This document shows, piece after piece, positions 77 to 7,543 of a DNA stretch of 7,543 nucleotides; the stretch's first letter is position 1; every line of letters starts with the position of its first letter. The stretch lies in the IMG/VR virus record IMGVR_UViG_2706794685_000002, one strand, 5' to 3'. This DNA is from a virus. Taxonomy: Duplodnaviria > Heunggongvirae > Uroviricota > Caudoviricetes. The position numbers and the translations under genes are program-made. The notes beneath the pieces are model-generated. The model saw nothing but the letters and a program-made list of their open reading frames with translations. It was not told the origin of the DNA and searched no databases.

Positions 77-403
77 TCACTGGCGCTGACACTTCATCAC
101 CTCCGGACGTAAATCACCATCCTTTGGTGCATTCAGAAACGCGTTCAGTGTCCCCGGTGCATCAGTCGGTGCCACATCAATATCCCCGACACGGGTTGGC
201 TGCCAGCCGTTACAGTGAAGCGCAACCTCGTAATACCCCGGCTCAGCCTCAATCACATAAGCACCGTTATTGTCCGTCACGCAAGTGGCAACAACGTGTG
301 CCACAACGGTCGGACTGGTTCTTCTGGCCCGCAGTTCAATCGCACAATTTACGACAGGTTTACCCGCCCCATCTTTCAGTACACCTGAAATCTTTACTGC
401 CAT
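77..403 (-). pseudogene. stf: Side tail fibre (Stf) N-terminal fragment, truncated remnant
   Basis: Minus-strand ORF 77..445; the internal Met at 401-403 begins MAVKISGVLKDG..., which I recognise as the lambda Stf N-terminus, and GTLNAFL / RPEV also match. A GGGGTG Shine-Dalgarno-like sequence precedes this ATG, whereas the track start at 445 has none. The ORF stops after about 109 aa, and the in-frame sequence past the stop (1..76) no longer looks like Stf. Confidence 0.5.
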
Positions 404-414
404 ATTCACCCCAC

Positions 415-439
415 AAAAAGCCCGCCTGAACCAGCGGGC
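415..439 (-). terminator. Putative rho-independent terminator downstream of lom
   Basis: Perfect 6-bp all-GC stem gcccgc (420-425) / gcgggc (434-439) with an 8-nt loop, adjacent to aaaaa at 415-419, which is a T-tract on the minus-strand transcript. It sits 28 nt past the lom stop codon. Confidence 0.5.
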
Positions 440-466
440 AGTCATAACACTGTGTTACCTGGCTAA

Positions 467-1066
467 TCAGAACTTATAACCGACACCCACGATGAAACCG
501 TCAGTGCGCCAGTCACCACTGCCGGAACCTTCATAAGCAAGGTCAATGGCCACGGATTCGGTCGGGTTAAACTGCACGCCAGCCCCCCACGCCAGAGACG
601 TGTTGCTGTGGCGACCGCCATCACTTCCGGTCAGCACATCGTGCGTTTTCCCCTTGTTGTCAGTTACGCGGAGATAATCCCCGGAGAAGGTCGACACACG
701 GCTGTAAGCCACGCCCGCCATCGCATACGCGCTGAACCATTCATTCACGCGCACAGACGGCCCCGCCATCACGCTGAACCAGCGGTTACGCACGGAATCC
801 TCATGCCAGCGGGTATCGCTGTAATGCGTTTTTTGCTCATCTTCAGCGTTGGCATAACTGAATGACGTAATCAGCCCCAGCGTGTCCGTAAACTCATAAC
901 GGTATTTCACGTTAATGCCCTTCAGGTCATCGCTGCCTGGCATATCAGTATGGGTCTGAAGATACCCGGCGCTCAGCGTGGACTGATGTTCAGACGCCCA
1001 TGCAGGCGCACCGGATACGGCCAGACAGATGGCTGCGGACAAAATGGCTGCACAAACTTTACGCAT
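467..1066 (-). CDS. lom: Lom, Ail/Lom/PagC-family outer-membrane beta-barrel protein (phage moron)
   Basis: 199-aa ORF with an ATG at 1064-1066 and a GAGAGG Shine-Dalgarno upstream. N-terminal signal peptide MRKVCAAILSAAICLAVSGAPAWA. The C-terminus ...AYEGSGSGDWRTDGFIVGVGYKF matches the lambda Lom C-terminus and ends in an aromatic residue, as outer-membrane barrels do. Position immediately after J is the lambda arrangement. Confidence 0.9.
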   Translation of the reverse strand: MRKVCAAILSAAICLAVSGAPAWASEHQSTLSAGYLQTHTDMPGSDDLKGINVKYRYEFTDTLGLITSFSYANAEDEQKTHYSDTRWHEDSVRNRWFSVMAGPSVRVNEWFSAYAMAGVAYSRVSTFSGDYLRVTDNKGKTHDVLTGSDGGRHSNTSLAWGAGVQFNPTESVAIDLAYEGSGSGDWRTDGFIVGVGYKF

Positions 1067-1087
1067 AATTACCTCTCGCTTTTCTGC

Positions 1088-1114
1088 AATAAAAAAGGCA
1101 CCATTTCTGGTGCC
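1088..1114 (-). terminator. Putative rho-independent terminator between J and lom
   Basis: Stem ggcacc (1097-1102) / ggtgcc (1109-1114), loop atttct, adjacent to aataaaaaa at 1088-1096, which reads as a T-tract on the minus-strand RNA. It lies between the J stop (1134) and the lom Shine-Dalgarno. Confidence 0.5.
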
Positions 1115-1133
1115 CGTATCTGGGTTATAAAAT

Positions 1134-4100
1134 TCAGCTAATCGTGATGCCTGCAGTGGCTTTCTTCATCACCACAACCAGCAAATCGCTGATACTTGCT
1201 GTGGGATACCAGCCATTTACCAGCCATGCCGATACAGAAAACTCCAGCGTCATGTGACCGTGACCGGCAGGCATATCAATAACACCCGTATATATCAGCG
1301 TATTATCCAGGGTCGTTCGGTTATAAATTTCAGCACCGTTTTTCTTCACTATCAGGCGGCATGACGAATAAATATTGTTATTCTTCCGCTCATGTTTAGC
1401 ACCGCGAAACGCCACCGCGGGAATAACAATTTGCCGATCAAACGGCTGATCGTCATAAACCCTGACGGTAATGGTCCCTGATGGCCACCTCTCCGGTGCC
1501 CGGGAGTCCCGTGGGAAAGGTTTGCCCACTGTTTTAACGAGATCGCCTTCAATCTGGTTCGCGGACAATTTTCCCAGAACCCGACAGTTCTTATTAATCG
1601 TGACGTTGTTGAGCGTCCCGGAGTTCGCGTTCACGTTACCGCTGATATCGGCATTTTTCGCCGTCAGCCGTCCGCCAGGTGTCAGGGAAAATGCCGGAGG
1701 ATTACCGCCGCTGGTAATGGTCGGAGCCGTCAGGCATTTCAGGAACACGTCGTTCATGAATATCTGATCGCCCTGACCAACAAACATCGGCTTTGTGTTG
1801 CCATTCGCAGGATTAATCATCGCAATCCTGTCTGCCGCCAGCAGCACCTGACTCTGCATTCCTGCTGGCGTATTCTCAATACCGGCACCGATACCCGCAA
1901 TATAAAGGCGTCCGTCCTTCATCTGTTGCAGCTTCACAGCCCACATGCTGTTCAGGTTATTATTTGTATCAACCTGAACTTTCTGTATCTGCTGGATTGC
2001 AGCACTCTGATTTTCCAGTTTTTTATTGACGGTTTGCGTGATTTCATTGCTGACATTCGTAATGGACGTCCTGATTTCAGTCAGGTCCGGCGCAAGCTGA
2101 CCGTTATCAATCTGCGTCCACAACTCCTTGCCGAGATGCGTTTTATTGATCAACCCTTTATAAAAATTCAGATAACCTTCTGCATCATCGCTCGCCCGAC
2201 CGATGGCCTCCACAAATGCCGATTTGCCAACGGTGTTCACACTGCGAACGTAAAAATAATAATCATGGCCCGGCCTGATATTGATACTGGCGGCTATCCA
2301 GTACAGCGCCGTGCCAAGATAGCGGGCGCTGGTTTCAACCTGCCTGATATCCGCAATCCGCTTTTCCGAAAACCAGAACTCAAACTGCACCGTCGGGTCA
2401 TATACAGCCAGTTTCGGGACCGCCGTTATCTGAAAATACCCCGGTATCAGTTCAATAGTGACAGGCGCTGCCGGTGCCGCAATCCGGAACGATACCGACG
2501 CCGGATCGCCCTGCTGCCCCCGGGCATTTACCGCCCGGACTGTCAGACTGTAATTCCCCAGCGCCAGCTGCCTGAAGCGGTATGTGGTTTCCGTCGTCCT
2601 GGCTGTGCTGACCAGCCGCTCACTGCCGTCGTCCGCTGCCACGGTCAGGCGAAGCAGGAAGCTCACACCCTTCACCACCTTCGGCGTGTCCCATCGCGCC
2701 AGCACCTGATATTCCCCGCTGTCTGCGGTGACTTCGGCGGTCAGATGCTGCACCGCTGGCGGCGTGACACCATTCACCGTGCCGCGCCGGTCACCGTCAA
2801 AGTGTGCCCCGTTATCCACGATGGCCTCTTTTTCCGGCACATGCTGCACGGCGGTGATGGCATACGTGCCGTCGTCGTTCTCACGGATACTCACGCAGCG
2901 GAACAGACGCTGGCGCAGCGTCGGCAGCTTCAGCCCCCACACGCTGTATTCTGCAACGCCGTCAGGAACCCGGCTCACTTTCACCTTCACGCCGTCGGTG
3001 ACGGACTGGACCTCCACGCTGACCGGATTGCCACTTCCGTCAACCAGGCTTATCAGCGTGGTACCGGAGGACGGCAGCGTGATTTCACGGTCGAGCGTCA
3101 GCGTCCGGGTCTGGCTGTTCACCGCCAGTACGCGACCACCGGTGCTGATACCGGCATAATCATCATCGCAGATTTCAATGACATCACCCGGTACATGGCG
3201 AAGCCCTTCTGCGCCCACGCTGAAGTCCACGGTCTGCGTTTCCAGCAGTTCCGTTTTAATCAGCCACAGCCCGGCTCGGTGTGCCTGCCCCCGGCTGGTA
3301 CAGCCAAAGGCATCCATCTTCGTGACATTACGACCGTAACGGGCAATGGCCTGCGTATCCTCCACAAGCTCTGTCGCCGTCTCCCAGCCGTTATCTGGGT
3401 CAATCCAGTTCACCTCAACGGCATTATGGCGGTCCTTCAGGGCGCTGAAGCTGTAGCGGAACGGCGCGCCATCGTCCGGCATCACCACATTACTGCGGTT
3501 ATAGGTCCACACCTTATCCGACGGTCGGTCCTGCACGAACGTCAGCATCTGTCCGTTCCATACCGGCATACAGCGCATCGCCGAGCAGAAATCACTGAGA
3601 ACATCCCACGCCTTACGCTGTGTGGTCAGGTAAGAGTTACAGGTGATGCGCGGCTCCGTGCCGCCAAATCCGTCCGTCACTGACTGGTCGCAGTACTGGC
3701 CGATGACATACAGCGCCCATTTGTCCACATCTGCCGCACCAAGACGTTTCCCCATGCCGTAGCGCGGATGAGTGAGCATGTCCCACAGACACCAGGCCAT
3801 GTTGTTGCTGTATGCTGGCTTAAGCGTTCCGTCCCAGATACCGCTGTATTGCCGCGTCTGCGGGTTATAGTTCGACGGCACCTGCAGAATGCGCCCGCGA
3901 AGATGATAATTGCGACTCACCTGCTGGTTACCGAACTGCTCTGAATCCACCTGCACGCCGACCAGCGCCGTGTTCGGGTAGCACTGTTTCACATCGATGA
4001 TTTCGGTGTACGACGACCAGAGCGTTTTGTTCTGCAGCTGGTCTGTGGTGCTGTCCGGTGTCATCCTGCGCATCCGGANNNNNNNNNNNNNNNNNNNNNN

Positions 4101-4694
4101 NNNNNNNNNNNNNNNNNNNNNNNNNNNNNNNNNNNNNNNNNNNNNNNNNNNNNNNNNNNNNNNNNNNNNNNNNNNNNNNNNNNNNNNNNNNNNNNNNNNN
4201 NNNNNNNNNNNNNNNNNNNNNNNNNNNNNNNNNNNNNNNNNNNNNNNNNNNNNNNNNNNNNNNNNNNNNNNNNNNNNNNNNNNNNNNNNNNNNNNNNNNN
4301 NNNNNNNNNNNNNNNNNNNNNNNNNNNNNNNNNNNNNNNNNNNNNNNNNNNNNNNNNNNNNNNNNNNNNNNNNNNNNNNNNNNNNNNNNNNNNNNNNNNN
4401 NNNNNNNNNTTTCACTTCCGTACCCAGCACCGTCTCGGAGCCGGAGGATTCAAAACCCTCCGGCGGTGTCTGCTCCTGCTCACCTGCACGGAACACCACC
4501 GTAACACCGGAAAAGTTTGTCTTCCCCTCGCTGTCCAGGACCGGCGTACCGTTCAGCAGCACGCTTTTTAATCCATCCACCGGACCGTCAACCGGCCCTT
4601 CGCTGATGGCATCAATCACACTCAGCAACTGCGTGGATTTCAGGTTGTCCTTCGCTTCGCGCGGGGTATGCCCCTTACTGCTGCCTTTACCCAT
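1134..4694 (-). CDS. J: Host specificity protein J (tail tip / central tail fibre), interrupted by an assembly gap
   Basis: N-terminus [34 protein letters not shown]... matches lambda J. The segment after the gap (…[30 protein letters not shown]…) is J-like and a fibronectin-III-like stretch is visible. A 60-bp I-J spacer matches lambda. The 1186-codon length is read through 111 X codons, so the true length is unknown. Confidence 0.88.
4079..4409. other. Run of 331 N (assembly or scaffold gap) inside J
   Basis: Uninterrupted n characters from 4079 to 4409 in the supplied sequence. Confidence 0.99.
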
Positions 4695-4716
4695 TCCTCA
4701 CGCTCCATAAACGACA

Positions 4717-4736
4717 AAACCGCCCGCAGGCGGTTT
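4717..4736 (-). promoter_or_regulatory. GC-rich hairpin in the I-J spacer (possible attenuator or RNA stability element)
   Basis: aaaccgcc (4717-4724) / ggcggttt (4729-4736) with loop cgca. On the minus-strand RNA the GC core is followed by a U-rich run (uuuugucguuua) just upstream of the J ribosome-binding site. Confidence 0.3.
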
Positions 4737-4754
4737 CACATAAAACATTTTGCA

Positions 4755-5396
4755 TCAGCGACCAATCACCACAACCTGACCACCATCCCCTTCGTCTGCC
4801 GTGCTGATCTCCTGAGAAACCACACGTGACCCCACGCGCATTTCACCGTACAGAACGGGCAGAACATTGCCCTGGGCAACCATGTTATCCAGTGACGAGA
4901 AATACGTGTTCTGCTTACCGTTATCCGTTGTCTGTGTACGGGGAGTTCTGGCTTTCGGTGCCAGCATCTGTGCAACACCGCCAAGCGTCATACTGGCACC
5001 GAGAGAAAACAGCAGATTACTCGCCATAATTCCTACCCCCGGCATCCATATAGCAACCGCCATAACAGCCGCCCCCAGCACCGCCTGAAACACACCGCCA
5101 CTTTTAGCTCCCACCAGACGCGGTACTATGTGGATCACTGCACCATTTGCCAGCGGCTCATTAAGACGGGCAGACAATTCGGTTTCACCTGCATCACGCC
5201 CGGCAATGCGCACCTGATACCAGCCGTCACTCAGTTTCTGACGAAACGCCGGGAGCTGTGTGGCCAGTGCCCGGATGGCTTCAGCCCCCGTTTTCACACG
5301 AAGGTCGATGCGGCGACCAAATCGTTGTAAATCCCCGTAAAGGCAGATGCGCGCCATGCCCGGTGACGCCAGAGGGAGTGTGTGCGTCGCTGCCAT
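4755..5396 (-). CDS. I: Tail tip assembly protein I
   Basis: 213-aa ORF beginning MAATHTLPLASPGMARICLYGDLQRFGRRIDLRVKTGAEAIRALATQLPAFRQKLSDGWYQVRIAGRD..., matching lambda gpI. It overlaps the 3' end of K by 103 nt, as in lambda. Confidence 0.9.
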   Translation of the reverse strand: MAATHTLPLASPGMARICLYGDLQRFGRRIDLRVKTGAEAIRALATQLPAFRQKLSDGWYQVRIAGRDAGETELSARLNEPLANGAVIHIVPRLVGAKSGGVFQAVLGAAVMAVAIWMPGVGIMASNLLFSLGASMTLGGVAQMLAPKARTPRTQTTDNGKQNTYFSSLDNMVAQGNVLPVLYGEMRVGSRVVSQEISTADEGDGGQVVVIGR

Positions 5397-6037
5397 TTGT
5401 CGGTGTACCTCTCTCGTTTGCTCAGTTGTTCAGGAATATGGTGCAGCAGCCCGCCGTCACCGCAGTAAATGGCGGCATGATTCGGCACCGATGAACCAAA
5501 ACAGCACAGCAGCACATCGCCCGGCTGTGCCTCTGTCAGTGCGACACGGTAAAAACCCGTCACCTCCATATTGTCAAGATAGAGATTCTGACCGTTACGC
5601 CACCAGTCATCCCCGCGATGAAAATCCGGCATCTCAATCCCTGCCAGATGATAAGCATCCCGGAACAGCGTGTAACAGTCCGTCACCCCGTGCTCAAAGC
5701 GCCGCCCGGTGAGATGCGGCACACAGCGGAACTTGTGAATCGCCCCCCGGCAGACCAGCCACCACGGCAAATCACTCTGCACCTGCAGCCGCCGGTCAGC
5801 CTCACTCAGCCAGGGCAGACCACCGGGATGACTGTGGACCAGCGCCACAATCTCACCCTGCATTTGTGCCCGCAGCCAGTCCTCCGGAGCCATCCGGAAC
5901 CGTTCCTCCGGCTCACCGGAGATATTCTCGCTGGGAAGATACCTGTCTCCCTCCGGCGTTCTTACCACGAAGCCACACGACTCCGCTGGCGCACATCGCC
6001 GGGCGTGCGCCAGAATCGCTGATTCTGTCTGTGTCAT
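5294..6037 (-). CDS. K: Tail tip assembly protein K, long form with JAB/MPN (JAMM) and NlpC/P60 domains
   Basis: ATG at 6035-6037, 4 nt after the L stop, gives 247 aa starting MTQTESAILAHARRC.... A JAMM motif HSHPGGLPWLSEAD (HxHx7Sx2D) is visible with an upstream ESCGFVV glutamate; a Cys (DCYTLF) and downstream His residues fit NlpC/P60. The classical 199-aa lambda K start corresponds to the internal Met at 5891-5893 (MAPEDWL...), which has a GGAGG upstream. The track ORF up to 6301 is a GTG-initiated extension overlapping L. Confidence 0.85.
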   Translation of the reverse strand: MTQTESAILAHARRCAPAESCGFVVRTPEGDRYLPSENISGEPEERFRMAPEDWLRAQMQGEIVALVHSHPGGLPWLSEADRRLQVQSDLPWWLVCRGAIHKFRCVPHLTGRRFEHGVTDCYTLFRDAYHLAGIEMPDFHRGDDWWRNGQNLYLDNMEVTGFYRVALTEAQPGDVLLCCFGSSVPNHAAIYCGDGGLLHHIPEQLSKRERYTDKWQRRTHSLWRHRAWRASAFTGIYNDLVAASTFV

Positions 6038-6041
6038 GGAT

Positions 6042-6740
6042 TTACTGAGAAAGTTTATTGATGGAAAGGAAACCGCCGAAATTACCGGTATTGTTGCGCA
6101 ACTCACACCCGCGCATACACTTGCTGCATTTGTCCTTCCGGATATCCGTCGTTGGTTTGTCGAACTCGTCAGCCACTGCCCTGCCCGTGTAACCACACTC
6201 ATCAGAACGGTAAGTCCACATACAGGTATTCGCCAGCATGATACGCCCCGGGAAAACCGCGCCATCCGTCTCCGTTGGTGTGGCCAGCACAAAAGAGGCA
6301 CTGACCGCGCTCAGTTCGCTGCACTGCTCGATGCGCCAGCGGCTGATCACCTCCTGTTCCGGATCGGCGTCGCTGTTTCCGTTGACGAAGTTCACCGCAT
6401 CCAGAAAACGGGCGTAAACCTTACGCCTGACCACCGTTCCGCCGACCAGACTCTGCAGGTCTTCCGCCATCCCGGTGACCATTCCGTGCAGGTTAGAAAC
6501 CGTCAGTGTCGGACGGGCAGCACTGCCCTTGCCGTTCAGTTCAAATCCCGTCCCCTGAATGGGGTATGCCTGATACTGCCGCCCCTGCCAGGTAACCGGC
6601 TCACCTTTTTCGTTCTGCTCATTACAGAAAAAATAACGTTCACCACCGACCTCTGTCAGATCGATTTCCCAGAGCACCACCTGGGCTGACTGAGTGAGGC
6701 GTGTCGTCTCATGATGTGTTTCCTGTGGAATATCCTGCAT
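6042..6740 (-). CDS. L: Minor tail protein L
   Basis: 232-aa ORF, the same length as lambda gpL, starting MQDIPQET.... Five cysteines cluster in the C-terminal part, consistent with the Fe-S-binding domain reported for gpL. Synteny M-L-K. Confidence 0.9.
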   Translation of the reverse strand: MQDIPQETHHETTRLTQSAQVVLWEIDLTEVGGERYFFCNEQNEKGEPVTWQGRQYQAYPIQGTGFELNGKGSAARPTLTVSNLHGMVTGMAEDLQSLVGGTVVRRKVYARFLDAVNFVNGNSDADPEQEVISRWRIEQCSELSAVSASFVLATPTETDGAVFPGRIMLANTCMWTYRSDECGYTGRAVADEFDKPTTDIRKDKCSKCMRGCELRNNTGNFGGFLSINKLSQ

Positions 6741-6749
6741 CAGAGCCTC

Positions 6750-7079
6750 CTATGCCACGACCTGTTCAAAATCTGCCGTTATGGTTACCCACAACGCCCC
6801 CACGCTTGCCGACCATTTACGACAAACCACCCTGATCGGCTTCCAGTCATAAGGTGGCGTCCACTGAAATGCGCGGACGCCACCGTGCCGTTCCAGAAAG
6901 GCTTTTAAAAATGGGTGTTCACCTTTACGAACACGTATCTTCACGCTGTAAGTCGACAACTGGTTATTCAGTCCCGCCGCACGACGCTGTTCATAACCAT
7001 CGCCCAGCTTCACTGTCACCACTTTCGGCTCTGATACCACATTCATATCCGGGCGCACTTTCCAGTGAAACGTCTCCAT
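6750..7079 (-). CDS. M: Minor tail protein M
   Basis: 109-aa ORF, the same length as lambda gpM. Its ATG overlaps the H stop codon (TAATG on the minus strand). Synteny H-M-L. Confidence 0.88.
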   Translation of the reverse strand: METFHWKVRPDMNVVSEPKVVTVKLGDGYEQRRAAGLNNQLSTYSVKIRVRKGEHPFLKAFLERHGGVRAFQWTPPYDWKPIRVVCRKWSASVGALWVTITADFEQVVA

Positions 7080-7418
7080 TACCGGTATGCTCCACTTAAC
7101 CGGCCACCATCACGGGCCTGCTGTTGCATAAAGTCCGCGGCCGCTTTTTTCCCGAGGTCATAAACCACCTTCAGGGCAGCCGGACCTATCTGCCCGTTCG
7201 TGCCATCGTTATTGATCTCAATGTTGTACTGCGGGGCAAACATCACCATGCCTGAACCACCAGTATCCGCCACACCCCCCAGCTTACCATCAGCACCGCG
7301 ACGCAGTGGCAGAATGGCTTCAGGTCCCGCTTCCCCCATCACACCCGCGCCTTTTGCAAAAGCAAAAAACGTCGGACGGTTAACCACCGTGCCACTGTAG
7401 CGACTCAAATCAGCAGAC
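7079..7418 (-). pseudogene. H: Tape measure protein H, C-terminal fragment truncated by IS insertion
   Basis: Minus-strand frame ends ...QQQARDGGRLSGAYR at a stop overlapping the M start, which is the H position in lambda. Phage-derived sequence ends at 7418/7419, where IS3-like terminal sequence begins. The track ORF start at 7444 is a GTG lying inside the IS end. Confidence 0.7.
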
Positions 7419-7543
7419 TGAGGTAGCCTGAGTTTAACGGACACTCCTTCCTGAAATAGAATGGCATCAGAAGGAGCTAATAATGAGCAGAAAAACCCAA
7501 CGTTACTCTAAAGAGTTCAAAGCCGAAGCTGTCAGAACGGTTC
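7419..7543 (+). mobile_element. IS3-family insertion sequence, left end (IS600-like), partial
   Basis: Begins with TG (7419-7420). GGACAC occupies positions 21-26 from the end, as in the IS3 left inverted repeat. The orfA ATG lies 65 nt inside, preceded by AAGGAG. The element continues beyond the window. Confidence 0.7.
7483..7543 (+). CDS. IS3-family transposase OrfA, N-terminal part (partial, runs off the window)
   Basis: ATG at 7483 with AAGGAG 7 nt upstream. Translation MSRKTQRYSKEFKAEAVRTV carries the (F/Y)SxEFKxEAV helix-turn-helix N-terminal signature of IS3-family OrfA; I recall this exact start from IS600. Confidence 0.7.
   Translation, partial: MSRKTQRYSKEFKAEAVRTV

Follow-up and report, generated by a model that had tools for sequence, protein, structure and literature searches.

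The J gene of this locus raises the question of whether a tail-tip protein that is lambda-like over most of its length ends in a receptor-binding part of another kind and, if so, which receptor that part recognizes. The original prediction, made from the DNA alone, placed a possible non-lambda end at 1134-1600, which would imply a receptor other than LamB. We analysed the whole stretch of 7,543 nucleotides (the window) in which the gene lies. With good confidence, we read 1134-1600 as the receptor-binding domain (hereafter RBD) in a recombinant J protein with a distal fibre of the VT1-Sakai lineage, most likely binding OmpC and not LamB. The features on which the argument draws are given below by position.

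77-445, minus strand: candidate for the 5' portion of stf, the gene of the side tail fibre, a 122-codon ORF with a stop codon (Pfam phage_tail_N, E 1.5e-36)
467-1066, minus strand: lom-like outer-membrane protein gene (Pfam Ail_Lom, E 4e-129)
1086-1115, minus strand: terminator-like hairpin and T-run, within the 67 nt that separate the stop codon of J from the start codon of lom
1134-4694, minus strand: gene J, tip attachment or central tail fibre protein, an ORF of 1186 codons including 331 masked positions (N) at 4079-4409
1137-1601, minus strand: Ig-like RBD of the VT1-Sakai/1A2 type, aa 1032-1186 (Pfam PF12421, E 2.6e-36)
1212-1214, minus strand: codon 1161, Gly, in a long loop; Asn in 1A2 and VT1-Sakai, aligning with lambda A1106, which adjoins D1107
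1374-1406, minus strand: variable hairpin-loop region, aa 1097-1107, seen in alignments and as a loop between strands in the model; aligns with lambda 1042-1052
1602-1949, minus strand: beta-prism central straight fibre (CSF), aa 916-1031 (Pfam Phage_Tail_Tip, E 1e-30)
1950-2141, minus strand: VT1-Sakai-type alpha-helical shaft (AHS), aa 852-915, from alignments (97-98% nt identity to VT1-Sakai, 15-37% to lambda)
2016-2108, minus strand: inserted AHS block of 28 residues beyond lambda, at about aa 863-893, from alignments
2128-2187, minus strand: junction zone from lambda-like to VT1-Sakai-like sequence, aa ~836-856 (identity 0.73 to VT1-Sakai, 0.77 to lambda, 0.97 to the O121 prophage)
2190-4694, minus strand: lambda-like part of J, hub and FNIII-1/2, aa 1 to ~835 (93.2% nt identity to lambda at 2117-4078, 87.6% at 4410-6161, 94-100% aa identity)

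The genetic setting is that of a lambda-like tail. ORFs and blastn alignments colinear with lambda and with an annotated O121 prophage gave the order tape-measure end, M, L, K, I, J, lom, stf. J itself has the lambda-type architecture of a hub (Phage-tail_3), two Ig/FNIII domains, a beta-prism tail-tip fibre and a C-terminal RBD. Five Pfam domains were matched, all far past their curated cutoffs (PF13550, PF24421, PF24489, PF09327 and PF12421; by name Phage-tail_3, Ig_J, Ig_J_second, Phage_Tail_Tip and Ig_GpJ_C). The J frame is uninterrupted by stop codons over the visible 3230 nt; because the remaining 331 nt are masked, which affects part of the N-terminal ~206 aa, the integrity of the gene is unverified. 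Two other ORFs overlap 1134-1600 (1352-1552 on the minus strand and 1471-1767 on the plus strand) and were treated as spurious, since the strongly supported J frame covers both. The ORF in the stf position is short (122 codons); the corresponding genes of lambda, of VT1-Sakai and of the O121 prophage span 1206-1413 nt and encode much longer proteins.

The hairpin that follows J has an 8-pair stem, GGGCACCAGAAATGGTGCCT, and then TTTTTATTGC. Terminator-like sites were not clearly above chance (three found, against 1.6 +/- 1.5 in shuffled sequences). Promoter-like and terminator-like sites in 400-2300 showed no excess over shuffles, and only the hairpin after J was sensibly placed. An Rfam scan of the whole window gave no match.

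Comparison with lambda J (NC_001416) bore out the view that the N-terminal and central parts are lambda-like, with 94-100% aa identity over about the first 850 aa, and also the suspicion that the C-terminal stretch differs. By tblastn, identity to lambda J is 54.8% over the last 249 aa; for the RBD taken by itself it is 41%, and no nucleotide match was found at 1134-1583; an alignment of the last 250 aa therefore lacks high identity to lambda across its full length. The divergence is uneven along the protein. Identity to lambda is 41-44% at aa 851-950, where the 28-aa insertion lies, 72-82% at 951-1050, 54% at 1051-1100 and 28-34% at 1101-1186. In blastn, the 93.2% match at 2117-4078 was followed by a 75% match at 1584-1947, and lambda gave no match at 1134-1583 or at 1948-2116. 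Within the CSF, aa 972-1031 form a segment that every J lineage has kept (in amino acids 87-90% identical to lambda, A8 and VT1-Sakai), although it is only 75% identical to lambda in nucleotides.

The sites that distinguish lambda from VT1-Sakai show where the gene changes parentage. They are lambda-like down to about 2200 and flip to the VT1-Sakai state at 2128-2187. The junction zone (aa ~836-856) matches both parents poorly and the O121 prophage well. J is thus a recombinant with a single switch at about 2130-2190, from a lambda-like hub and FNIII to a distal fibre of the VT1-Sakai/O157 lineage. The peptide quoted in the prediction is the C-terminus of the 1186-codon ORF. The predicted coordinates 1134-1600 coincide closely with the RBD (aa 1032-1186 plus the stop codon), and to that extent the prediction stood; the foreign block, on the other hand, is larger and begins at about 2130-2190. 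What was swapped is the whole distal fibre: an AHS longer by 28 aa, the beta-prism and the RBD. The AHS has been defined as lambda residues 809-861 (PMC11101478).

VT1-Sakai J (Sp15; also in the O157:H7 'PPompW' prophages) shares the long AHS, the beta-prism and the RBD with the window J, with 17 differences in 327 aa (aa 860-1186). Its hub and FNIII are diverged (43-93% aa identity to the window J), whereas those of the window J are lambda-like.

A lower GC content at the end of the gene had also been noted by eye. Windowed GC confirmed a real but modest drop: 0.490 in the RBD (GC3 0.529) against 0.584 in the hub and FNIII (GC3 0.699). The lowest value within J belongs to the AHS (0.448) and not to the RBD. 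Such figures, with the RBD at 0.49 and the AHS at 0.45 against 0.58 in the rest of J, might suggest recent acquisition from a low-GC donor outside the lambdoid gene pool. Equally low or lower GC was, however, found in 9.7% of all 467-nt windows across the whole window, and the RBD of lambda also lies below its own hub (0.547 against 0.581). Furthermore, all homologs found are J proteins of enterobacterial lambdoid phages or prophages. Because the drop is modest and the same trend is seen in lambda, we rejected a low-GC donor, which we regard as extremely improbable.

The C-terminal domain is not an unrelated module; it belongs, in diverged form, to the same RBD family as that of lambda. It matched PF12421 ('Tip attachment protein J, C-terminal receptor binding domain') with 125 bits against a cutoff of 26 (E 2.6e-36). 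In phmmer searches of the PDB, J matched 9wca (E 3e-132) and lambda gpJ 8xcj (E 3e-110), with an alignment that reached the last residue. An AlphaFold model of the monomer, resting on a shallow alignment (27 sequences), predicted an RBD with the Ig-like fold of 8xck and 9wca; pLDDT over this domain is 80-96. The top Foldseek matches were 9wca (66% identity) and 9wcb (62%), then lambda 8xck and 8xcj (50-51%), all with probability 1.00 and E 4e-20 to 3e-16. The entries 9wca and 9wcb are A8 gpJ in the closed state and in the open state bound to EDL933 OmpC, respectively; a literature search for a paper on these two entries gave nothing usable.

Within the family, the RBD is identical to that of the O121 prophage and 92% identical to that of VT1-Sakai, followed by A8 (60.6%), Fels-1 (45%), 434 (43%) and lambda (41%). 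The A8 protein has the same fold, belongs to the same family, is the best structural match, shares its C-terminal tail with the window RBD and binds OmpC. It nevertheless belongs to another RBD sub-lineage, at 60.6% identity, in which the lambda-1012 loop carries a 4-aa deletion and the lambda-1048 loop a 5-aa insertion. The RBDs of 434 (lambda h434) and Fels-1 are homologous members of the family; they were considered as closer relatives and rejected on identity (43% and 45%) and on differing loop lengths. At 43% identity the window RBD is not of the OmpC-binding 434 type. The J protein of 434 is reported to use OmpC, as is that of Gifsy-1. These are separate sub-lineages, and several branches of the J RBD family therefore use OmpC.

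The nearest relative is carried by an O121 prophage of E. coli (NZ_CP119441.1; close to aspS/yecD and beside ipaHd), which shows 97.97% nt identity over 92-4078, an identical RBD in its gpJ and the same J-lom-stf order. Relatives of this kind are found in about 38 other complete E. coli genome records, and one phage record at least 99% identical was counted among the J homologs. The O121 gpJ is interrupted by a stop at its codon 231 and is thus a pseudogene, whereas the window J is open where visible. The two also differ at the masked tract: against the 331 masked positions of the window the O121 prophage has 250 nt, a surplus of 81 nt that none of the 40 closest E. coli genomes has.

The internal stop at codon 231 of the O121 copy, together with a VT1-Sakai J that is split by mutation and the 331 masked nt of the window J, could be taken to mean that the C-terminus is a decaying remnant of a cryptic prophage, free of receptor selection, and that both its divergence and its lower GC come from decay. 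We consider this quite improbable. The 3230 nt that can be read make up a single open frame without stops. The RBD matches the O121 copy at 100% identity and a cluster of 351 sequences at 98%, and the Pfam scores are far past the cutoffs. The differences from VT1-Sakai are clustered in loops and not scattered. Furthermore, the divergence from lambda is at the level of lineages and common to many intact phage genomes.

A recombinant J with a VT1-Sakai-type end leaves the matter of the receptor, for which an engineered relative is informative. gpJ-1A2 is a lambda chimera carrying a VT1-Sakai C-terminus (Brodel et al., Nature 2024, PMC11338833 supplement). We compared the C-terminal 170 aa of the window J with the 1A2 graft, whose sequence was reconstructed across three frames from a machine-read PDF with indels, and with VT1-Sakai: 158 of the 170 residues are identical (92.9%), with no indels and 12 substitutions. 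For 1A2 and A8 the screening background was a lamB deletion; in a lamB/ompC double-deletion K-12 strain, delivery depended on which OmpC allele was provided (PMC11338833). 1A2 works with the EDL933 and TN03 alleles of OmpC and not with K-12 OmpC, and its delivery into wild-type MG1655 (LamB+, K-12 OmpC) was about 5% at an MOI of 50 (PMC11338833). A near-identical C-terminus thus works through OmpC without LamB, and by this homology the proposal of a receptor other than LamB is supported, with OmpC the likely receptor of the window allele. A literature search for the receptor of natural phages with a window-type RBD (PhiR/ECOR13 isolates) gave nothing usable.

Could the domain still use LamB, as lambda, Phi21 and HK97-like phages do? 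Lambda gpJ (P03749; 8xck, 8xcj) has the same architecture and Pfam domains as the window J and the same Ig-like RBD fold, as predicted for the latter, and LamB, OmpC and OmpF are all trimeric porins with labile specificity. Lambda gpJ binds LamB and has an AHS shorter by 28 aa. Its RBD is however only 41% identical to that of the window J. The window RBD has neither the identity to lambda J 977-1132 nor the residues S1012 and D1107 expected of a lambda-type LamB-binding RBD: S1012 is replaced by Pro1067 and D1107 by Trp1162. The behaviour of the near-identical 1A2, with its low delivery (about 5%, MOI 50) into LamB+ MG1655 and its activity in a lamB deletion supplied with OmpC, further argues against LamB, and we regard its use by this J as very unlikely.

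OmpC use is likely, but the range of OmpC alleles is uncertain, because 12 of 170 residues differ from 1A2 and most of these lie in putative receptor-facing loops. We assigned the loops that may contact OmpC from strand alternation and lambda hot spots, and not from coordinates. On this assignment the putative loops at about aa 1060-1072 and 1129-1133 are the same as in 1A2, that at 1159-1170 has one substitution and that at 1097-1107 has six. The hairpin-loop region (aa 1097-1107), which reads FSGAKHEKEHTD in VT1-Sakai/1A2, thus holds 6 of the 12 differences, with HEKEHTD changed to HERKNNN; another change is N to G beside the equivalent of lambda 1107. Lambda positions 1048-1049 mark a hot spot of indels and diversification among natural J homologs, and in lambda D1107 is critical for receptor switching (PMC6646904). 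Seven of the differences from 1A2 fall where natural and experimental receptor shifts concentrate (six at aa 1097-1107 and one beside the D1107 equivalent).

These positions bear on a further reading, in which an RBD of the same lineage has been retargeted by the changes at aa 1097-1107 and G1161 to other OmpC alleles (for example those of O121/Shigella hosts or K-12) or to a porin like OmpF. Seven of the 12 differences lie in the hairpin-loop region or the G1161 loop and align with the lambda hot spots 1048-49 and 1106/1107. The OmpC allele range is known to differ between 1A2 and A8, that of A8 being broader and including K-12 OmpC (PMC11338833). In Phi21 and lambda, porin use shifts with one or a few J mutations; for Phi21 a single one is enough to add OmpC, and porin specificity in the J family is therefore labile. 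The exact loop allele was found in Shigella flexneri, E. coli O121 and ECMA0423, and a fragment labelled S. dysenteriae was 100% identical over the 65% of the query that it covered. An exact-pattern scan of genome contigs for the variant-loop DNA returned only S. flexneri SFBU1023 and E. coli ECMA0423, neither of them identical to the window. The overall identity of 92-93% to an OmpC-dependent RBD and the unchanged loops around aa 1060-1072 and 1129-1133 speak against such a shift, which we judge unlikely. We hold as a tentative idea, with a somewhat better though still small chance, that the O121/S. flexneri loop allele and G1161 may represent natural retargeting of a 1A2-type RBD and, separately, that the 81 surplus in-frame positions under the mask may reflect a genuine insertion of 27 aa in the J hub. 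If this were true, the retargeted allele would be a ready-made specificity variant only 12 residues away from a well-characterised OmpC binder.

For an OmpC-binding fibre of the VT1-Sakai type, the template for the trigger is lambda, in which a homotrimeric fibre opens the tail tip (PMC11101478), and the trigger of the window J is presumably the same. The fibre would trimerise as in lambda, and the loops at the bottom of the RBD would enter the extracellular mouth of the trimeric porin. Binding would then spread the RBDs apart, twist the beta-prism, flip the AHS and open the tail tip, leading to DNA ejection.

The tail tip of the window J is a common, already described E. coli/Shigella version, the closest tested relative of which binds OmpC and not LamB; the finding is therefore correct but ordinary. 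That enterobacterial prophages exchange the J 'specificity region' as a module is already published (Maddamsetti et al. 2018), the same RBD lineage has served to redirect particles of lambda towards OmpC (Brodel et al. 2024), and there is a structure of a related RBD with OmpC (9wcb). As a discovery the result carries little weight, and its practical value is small, in that it predicts a prophage that would not use LamB. The window RBD is a natural 12-residue variant of the therapeutically used gpJ-1A2 RBD, and it could help to map the residues that set the OmpC allele range.

All long ORFs of the window were on the minus strand and followed the order of the lambda tail genes:

7079-7444, minus strand, end of the tape-measure gene (ORF and lambda comparison)
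6750-7079, minus strand, M (ORF and lambda comparison)
6042-6740, minus strand, L (ORF and lambda comparison)
between L and I, minus strand, K (ORF and lambda comparison)
4755-5396, minus strand, I (ORF and lambda comparison)
1134-4694, minus strand, J, 1186 codons (ORF and Pfam)
467-1066, minus strand, lom-like gene (ORF and Pfam)
77-445, minus strand, candidate start of the side tail fibre gene, stf (ORF and Pfam)

Positions 1134-1600 hold J's final 155 codons and its stop, and the peptide quoted in the original prediction is the genuine C-terminus of this ORF. Alignment with lambda (NC_001416) gave 94-100% identity for J aa 1-850, in keeping with the proposed lambda-like proximal part. Identity was 41-44% over aa 851-950, with an additional 28-residue insertion, 72-82% over aa 951-1050, 54% over aa 1051-1100 and 28-34% over aa 1101-1186; the last 155 aa were 41% identical. 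Since the last 249 aa shared 54.8% identity with lambda J (tblastn), rather than the high identity of a lambda-type end, the observation that the J terminus differs from lambda is correct. At the DNA level lambda matched at 93.2% over 2117-4078 and 75% over 1584-1947, with zero match in 1134-1583 and 1948-2116.

The anatomy of J was read on the cryo-EM domain map of lambda gpJ, which comprises hub domains, FNIII-1/2, the alpha-helical shaft (AHS, lambda residues 809-861), a beta-prism central straight fibre (CSF) and an Ig-like receptor-binding domain (RBD) with four bottom loops (PMC11101478). The blocks diverged from lambda were the AHS and the RBD. The CSF part between them is conserved in all J lineages, the sole reason why its protein looks lambda-like (87-90% identity); its nucleotide identity was 75% to lambda and 90-100% to VT1-Sakai, an E. 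coli O157:H7 prophage. J aa 860-1186 matched VT1-Sakai as one single block with just 17 differences in 327 aa. In a three-way nucleotide alignment, the lambda/VT1-Sakai informative sites were lambda-like down to ~2200 and VT1-Sakai-like from ~2130 to the stop. J is therefore recombinant, its one main junction falling at aa ~836-856. Positions 1134-1600 are thus non-lambda as predicted, but the foreign part of J extends beyond the last 470 nt to the entire distal fibre. Mosaicism of this kind is known and common in J, and residues 960-1132 have been described as an evolutionary module circulating independently of the remaining protein (Maddamsetti et al., PMC6646904).

The nearest full relative, a prophage carried by E. 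coli O121 and present in about 38 further complete genome records, had 97.97% nucleotide identity over 92-4078 and a 100% identical RBD. Two patches, 2368-2487 (FNIII-2, J aa ~736-776) and 2128-2187 (junction), matched lambda and VT1-Sakai alike at no more than 73-80%, but the O121 prophage at 97-100%; this points to a third lineage as a contributor to the mosaic. The extreme 3' end of J (1134-1175) appears to be a micro-mosaic. Its last ~35 nt carried 7 differences in Shigella flexneri SFBU1023 and E. coli ECMA0423, whose CSF end and RBD upstream of this (527 nt) were identical to the window; J ends in KKSTAGISIS in these two strains, as in A8, and in ...[10 protein letters not shown] in the window, as in VT1-Sakai. 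Positions 1-91, past the stop of the stf-like ORF, did not match the O121 or Shigella relatives, which are elsewhere 98-99% identical, and a further recombination boundary may lie near here.

J aa 1057-1186 matched PF12421, 'Tip attachment protein J, C-terminal receptor binding domain' (E 2.6e-36, 125 bits, cutoff 26), and the remainder of J matched the expected J domains in Pfam. By phmmer against PDB sequences the last 293 aa aligned end to end with 'A8 gpJ 713' (9wca, whole-protein E 3e-132) and with lambda gpJ (8xcj, 3e-110). An AlphaFold model of aa 990-1186 (RBD pLDDT 80-96) retrieved with Foldseek, as its best matches, the A8 gpJ closed state (9wca, 66% identity), its open state with OmpC of E. 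coli EDL933 (9wcb, 62%) and then lambda 8xck and 8xcj (50-51%). The RBD is therefore a diverged member of lambda's RBD family and no unrelated module. RBD identity was 92% to VT1-Sakai and 1A2, 60.6% to A8, 45% to Fels-1, 43% to 434, which uses OmpC yet belongs to another sub-lineage, and 41% to lambda. This type is very abundant, with hundreds to thousands of members from E. coli in protein clusters at 90-98% identity; the identical loop allele also occurs in a Shigella flexneri genome, and an S. dysenteriae-labelled fragment was identical over the stretch covered.

The RBD lineage has been characterised before and put to engineering use. In the work of Brodel et al. (Nature 2024, PMC11338833), C-termini of natural prophage J proteins were joined to lambda gpJ, and two chimeras, A8 and 1A2, screened on a lamB deletion recipient, use OmpC instead of LamB. 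The OmpC allele supplied decided delivery into a lamB/ompC double-deletion strain: A8 functioned with MG1655 and EDL933 OmpC, and 1A2 with EDL933 and TN03 but not K-12 OmpC, its delivery into wild-type MG1655 being ~5% at MOI 50. The 1A2-OmpC assignment was restated in a later preprint. The 1A2 graft (...[12 protein letters not shown] to end), read across three frames from machine-read supplement text with indels, equalled the VT1-Sakai J C-terminus at all readable positions. The window differed from it at 12 of 170 residues (K1035, P1059, R1097, R1103, K1104, N1105, N1106, N1107, K1117, T1128, T1136 and G1161). This 92.9% identity to an OmpC-using graft makes OmpC, judged from sequence, the most likely receptor, and supports the earlier interpretation that a receptor other than LamB is used. 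The 1A2 data and the 41% identity to lambda's RBD make use of LamB by this RBD unlikely.

Half of the 12 differences fell in one hairpin-loop region, aa 1097-1107, aligning with lambda 1042-1052, and G1161 aligned with lambda A1106, adjoining D1107. In natural J homologs the hot spots for indels and diversification are lambda residues 1012, 1048-49, 1077-78 and 1107, and the LamB-to-OmpF innovation needs residues 1012 and 1107 (PMC6646904). In the model the four hot-spot positions lay in alternate inter-strand loops with the conserved MPAG loop on the opposite side, which suggests that they correspond to bottom loops L1-L4. Porin specificity is labile in the J family, since phage Phi21 acquires additional OmpC use through a single mutation in J. 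With these substitutions the window allele may have an OmpC allele range other than that of 1A2 or, less likely, use a different porin. The loop differences and this lability hold our confidence in the explanation as a whole, a mosaic J with an OmpC-type RBD, at fairly high rather than very high.

Decay of a cryptic prophage possibly bears on J function, as the J genes of O121 and VT1-Sakai are pseudogenes and the window's J is partly masked; it does not account for a lineage-level difference common to many intact phages. J is inactivated in both closest annotated relatives, by an internal stop at codon 231 in the O121 prophage (NZ_CP119441.1; L002 7043-10522) and by a mutation splitting it into two CDS in VT1-Sakai (L003, 1278-4750); the visible frame of the window's J is open. 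The masked run, 331 N at 4079-4409 (aa ~96-206), has flanks that lie only 250 nt apart in lambda, in the O121 prophage and in each of the 40 complete E. coli genomes that matched best (queried span 650 nt, versus 731 nt in the window). It conceals 81 surplus positions, exactly 27 codons, which reflect a genuine in-frame insertion within the hub part or else a mask that is not length-preserving.

The predicted AT-richness of the J end was borne out as a weak effect: GC was 0.490 (GC3 0.529) in the RBD and 0.584 (0.699) in hub plus FNIII. About a tenth of the window's 467-nt windows were as low or lower, and lambda's RBD is likewise lower (0.547 versus 0.581). The lowest-GC piece of J was the helical shaft (0.448). 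This shaft is 28 residues, about four heptads, longer than lambda's (2016-2108, J aa ~863-893); the extra stretch is common to VT1-Sakai and the O121 prophage, whereas the 1A2 and A8 chimeras lack it and retain lambda's shaft. Upon receptor binding the lambda shaft flips, part of it refolding into beta-sheet, and a longer one would alter fibre length.

A terminator-like hairpin (1086-1115, minus strand; 8-bp stem and T-run) lies 19 nt past the J stop and before lom; its position suggests that lom is possibly transcribed apart from the late tail operon, although the number of terminator-like sites found by the scan was not above chance expectation. Past stf, the end of the O121 prophage (L002 2395-4146), which adjoins aspS/yecD, contains ipaHd, a gene for a T3SS effector E3 ligase of the ipaH type, and a dinI-like gene. 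Such cargo is characteristic of lambdoid prophages in Shigella and EHEC; the window stops short of the corresponding region.
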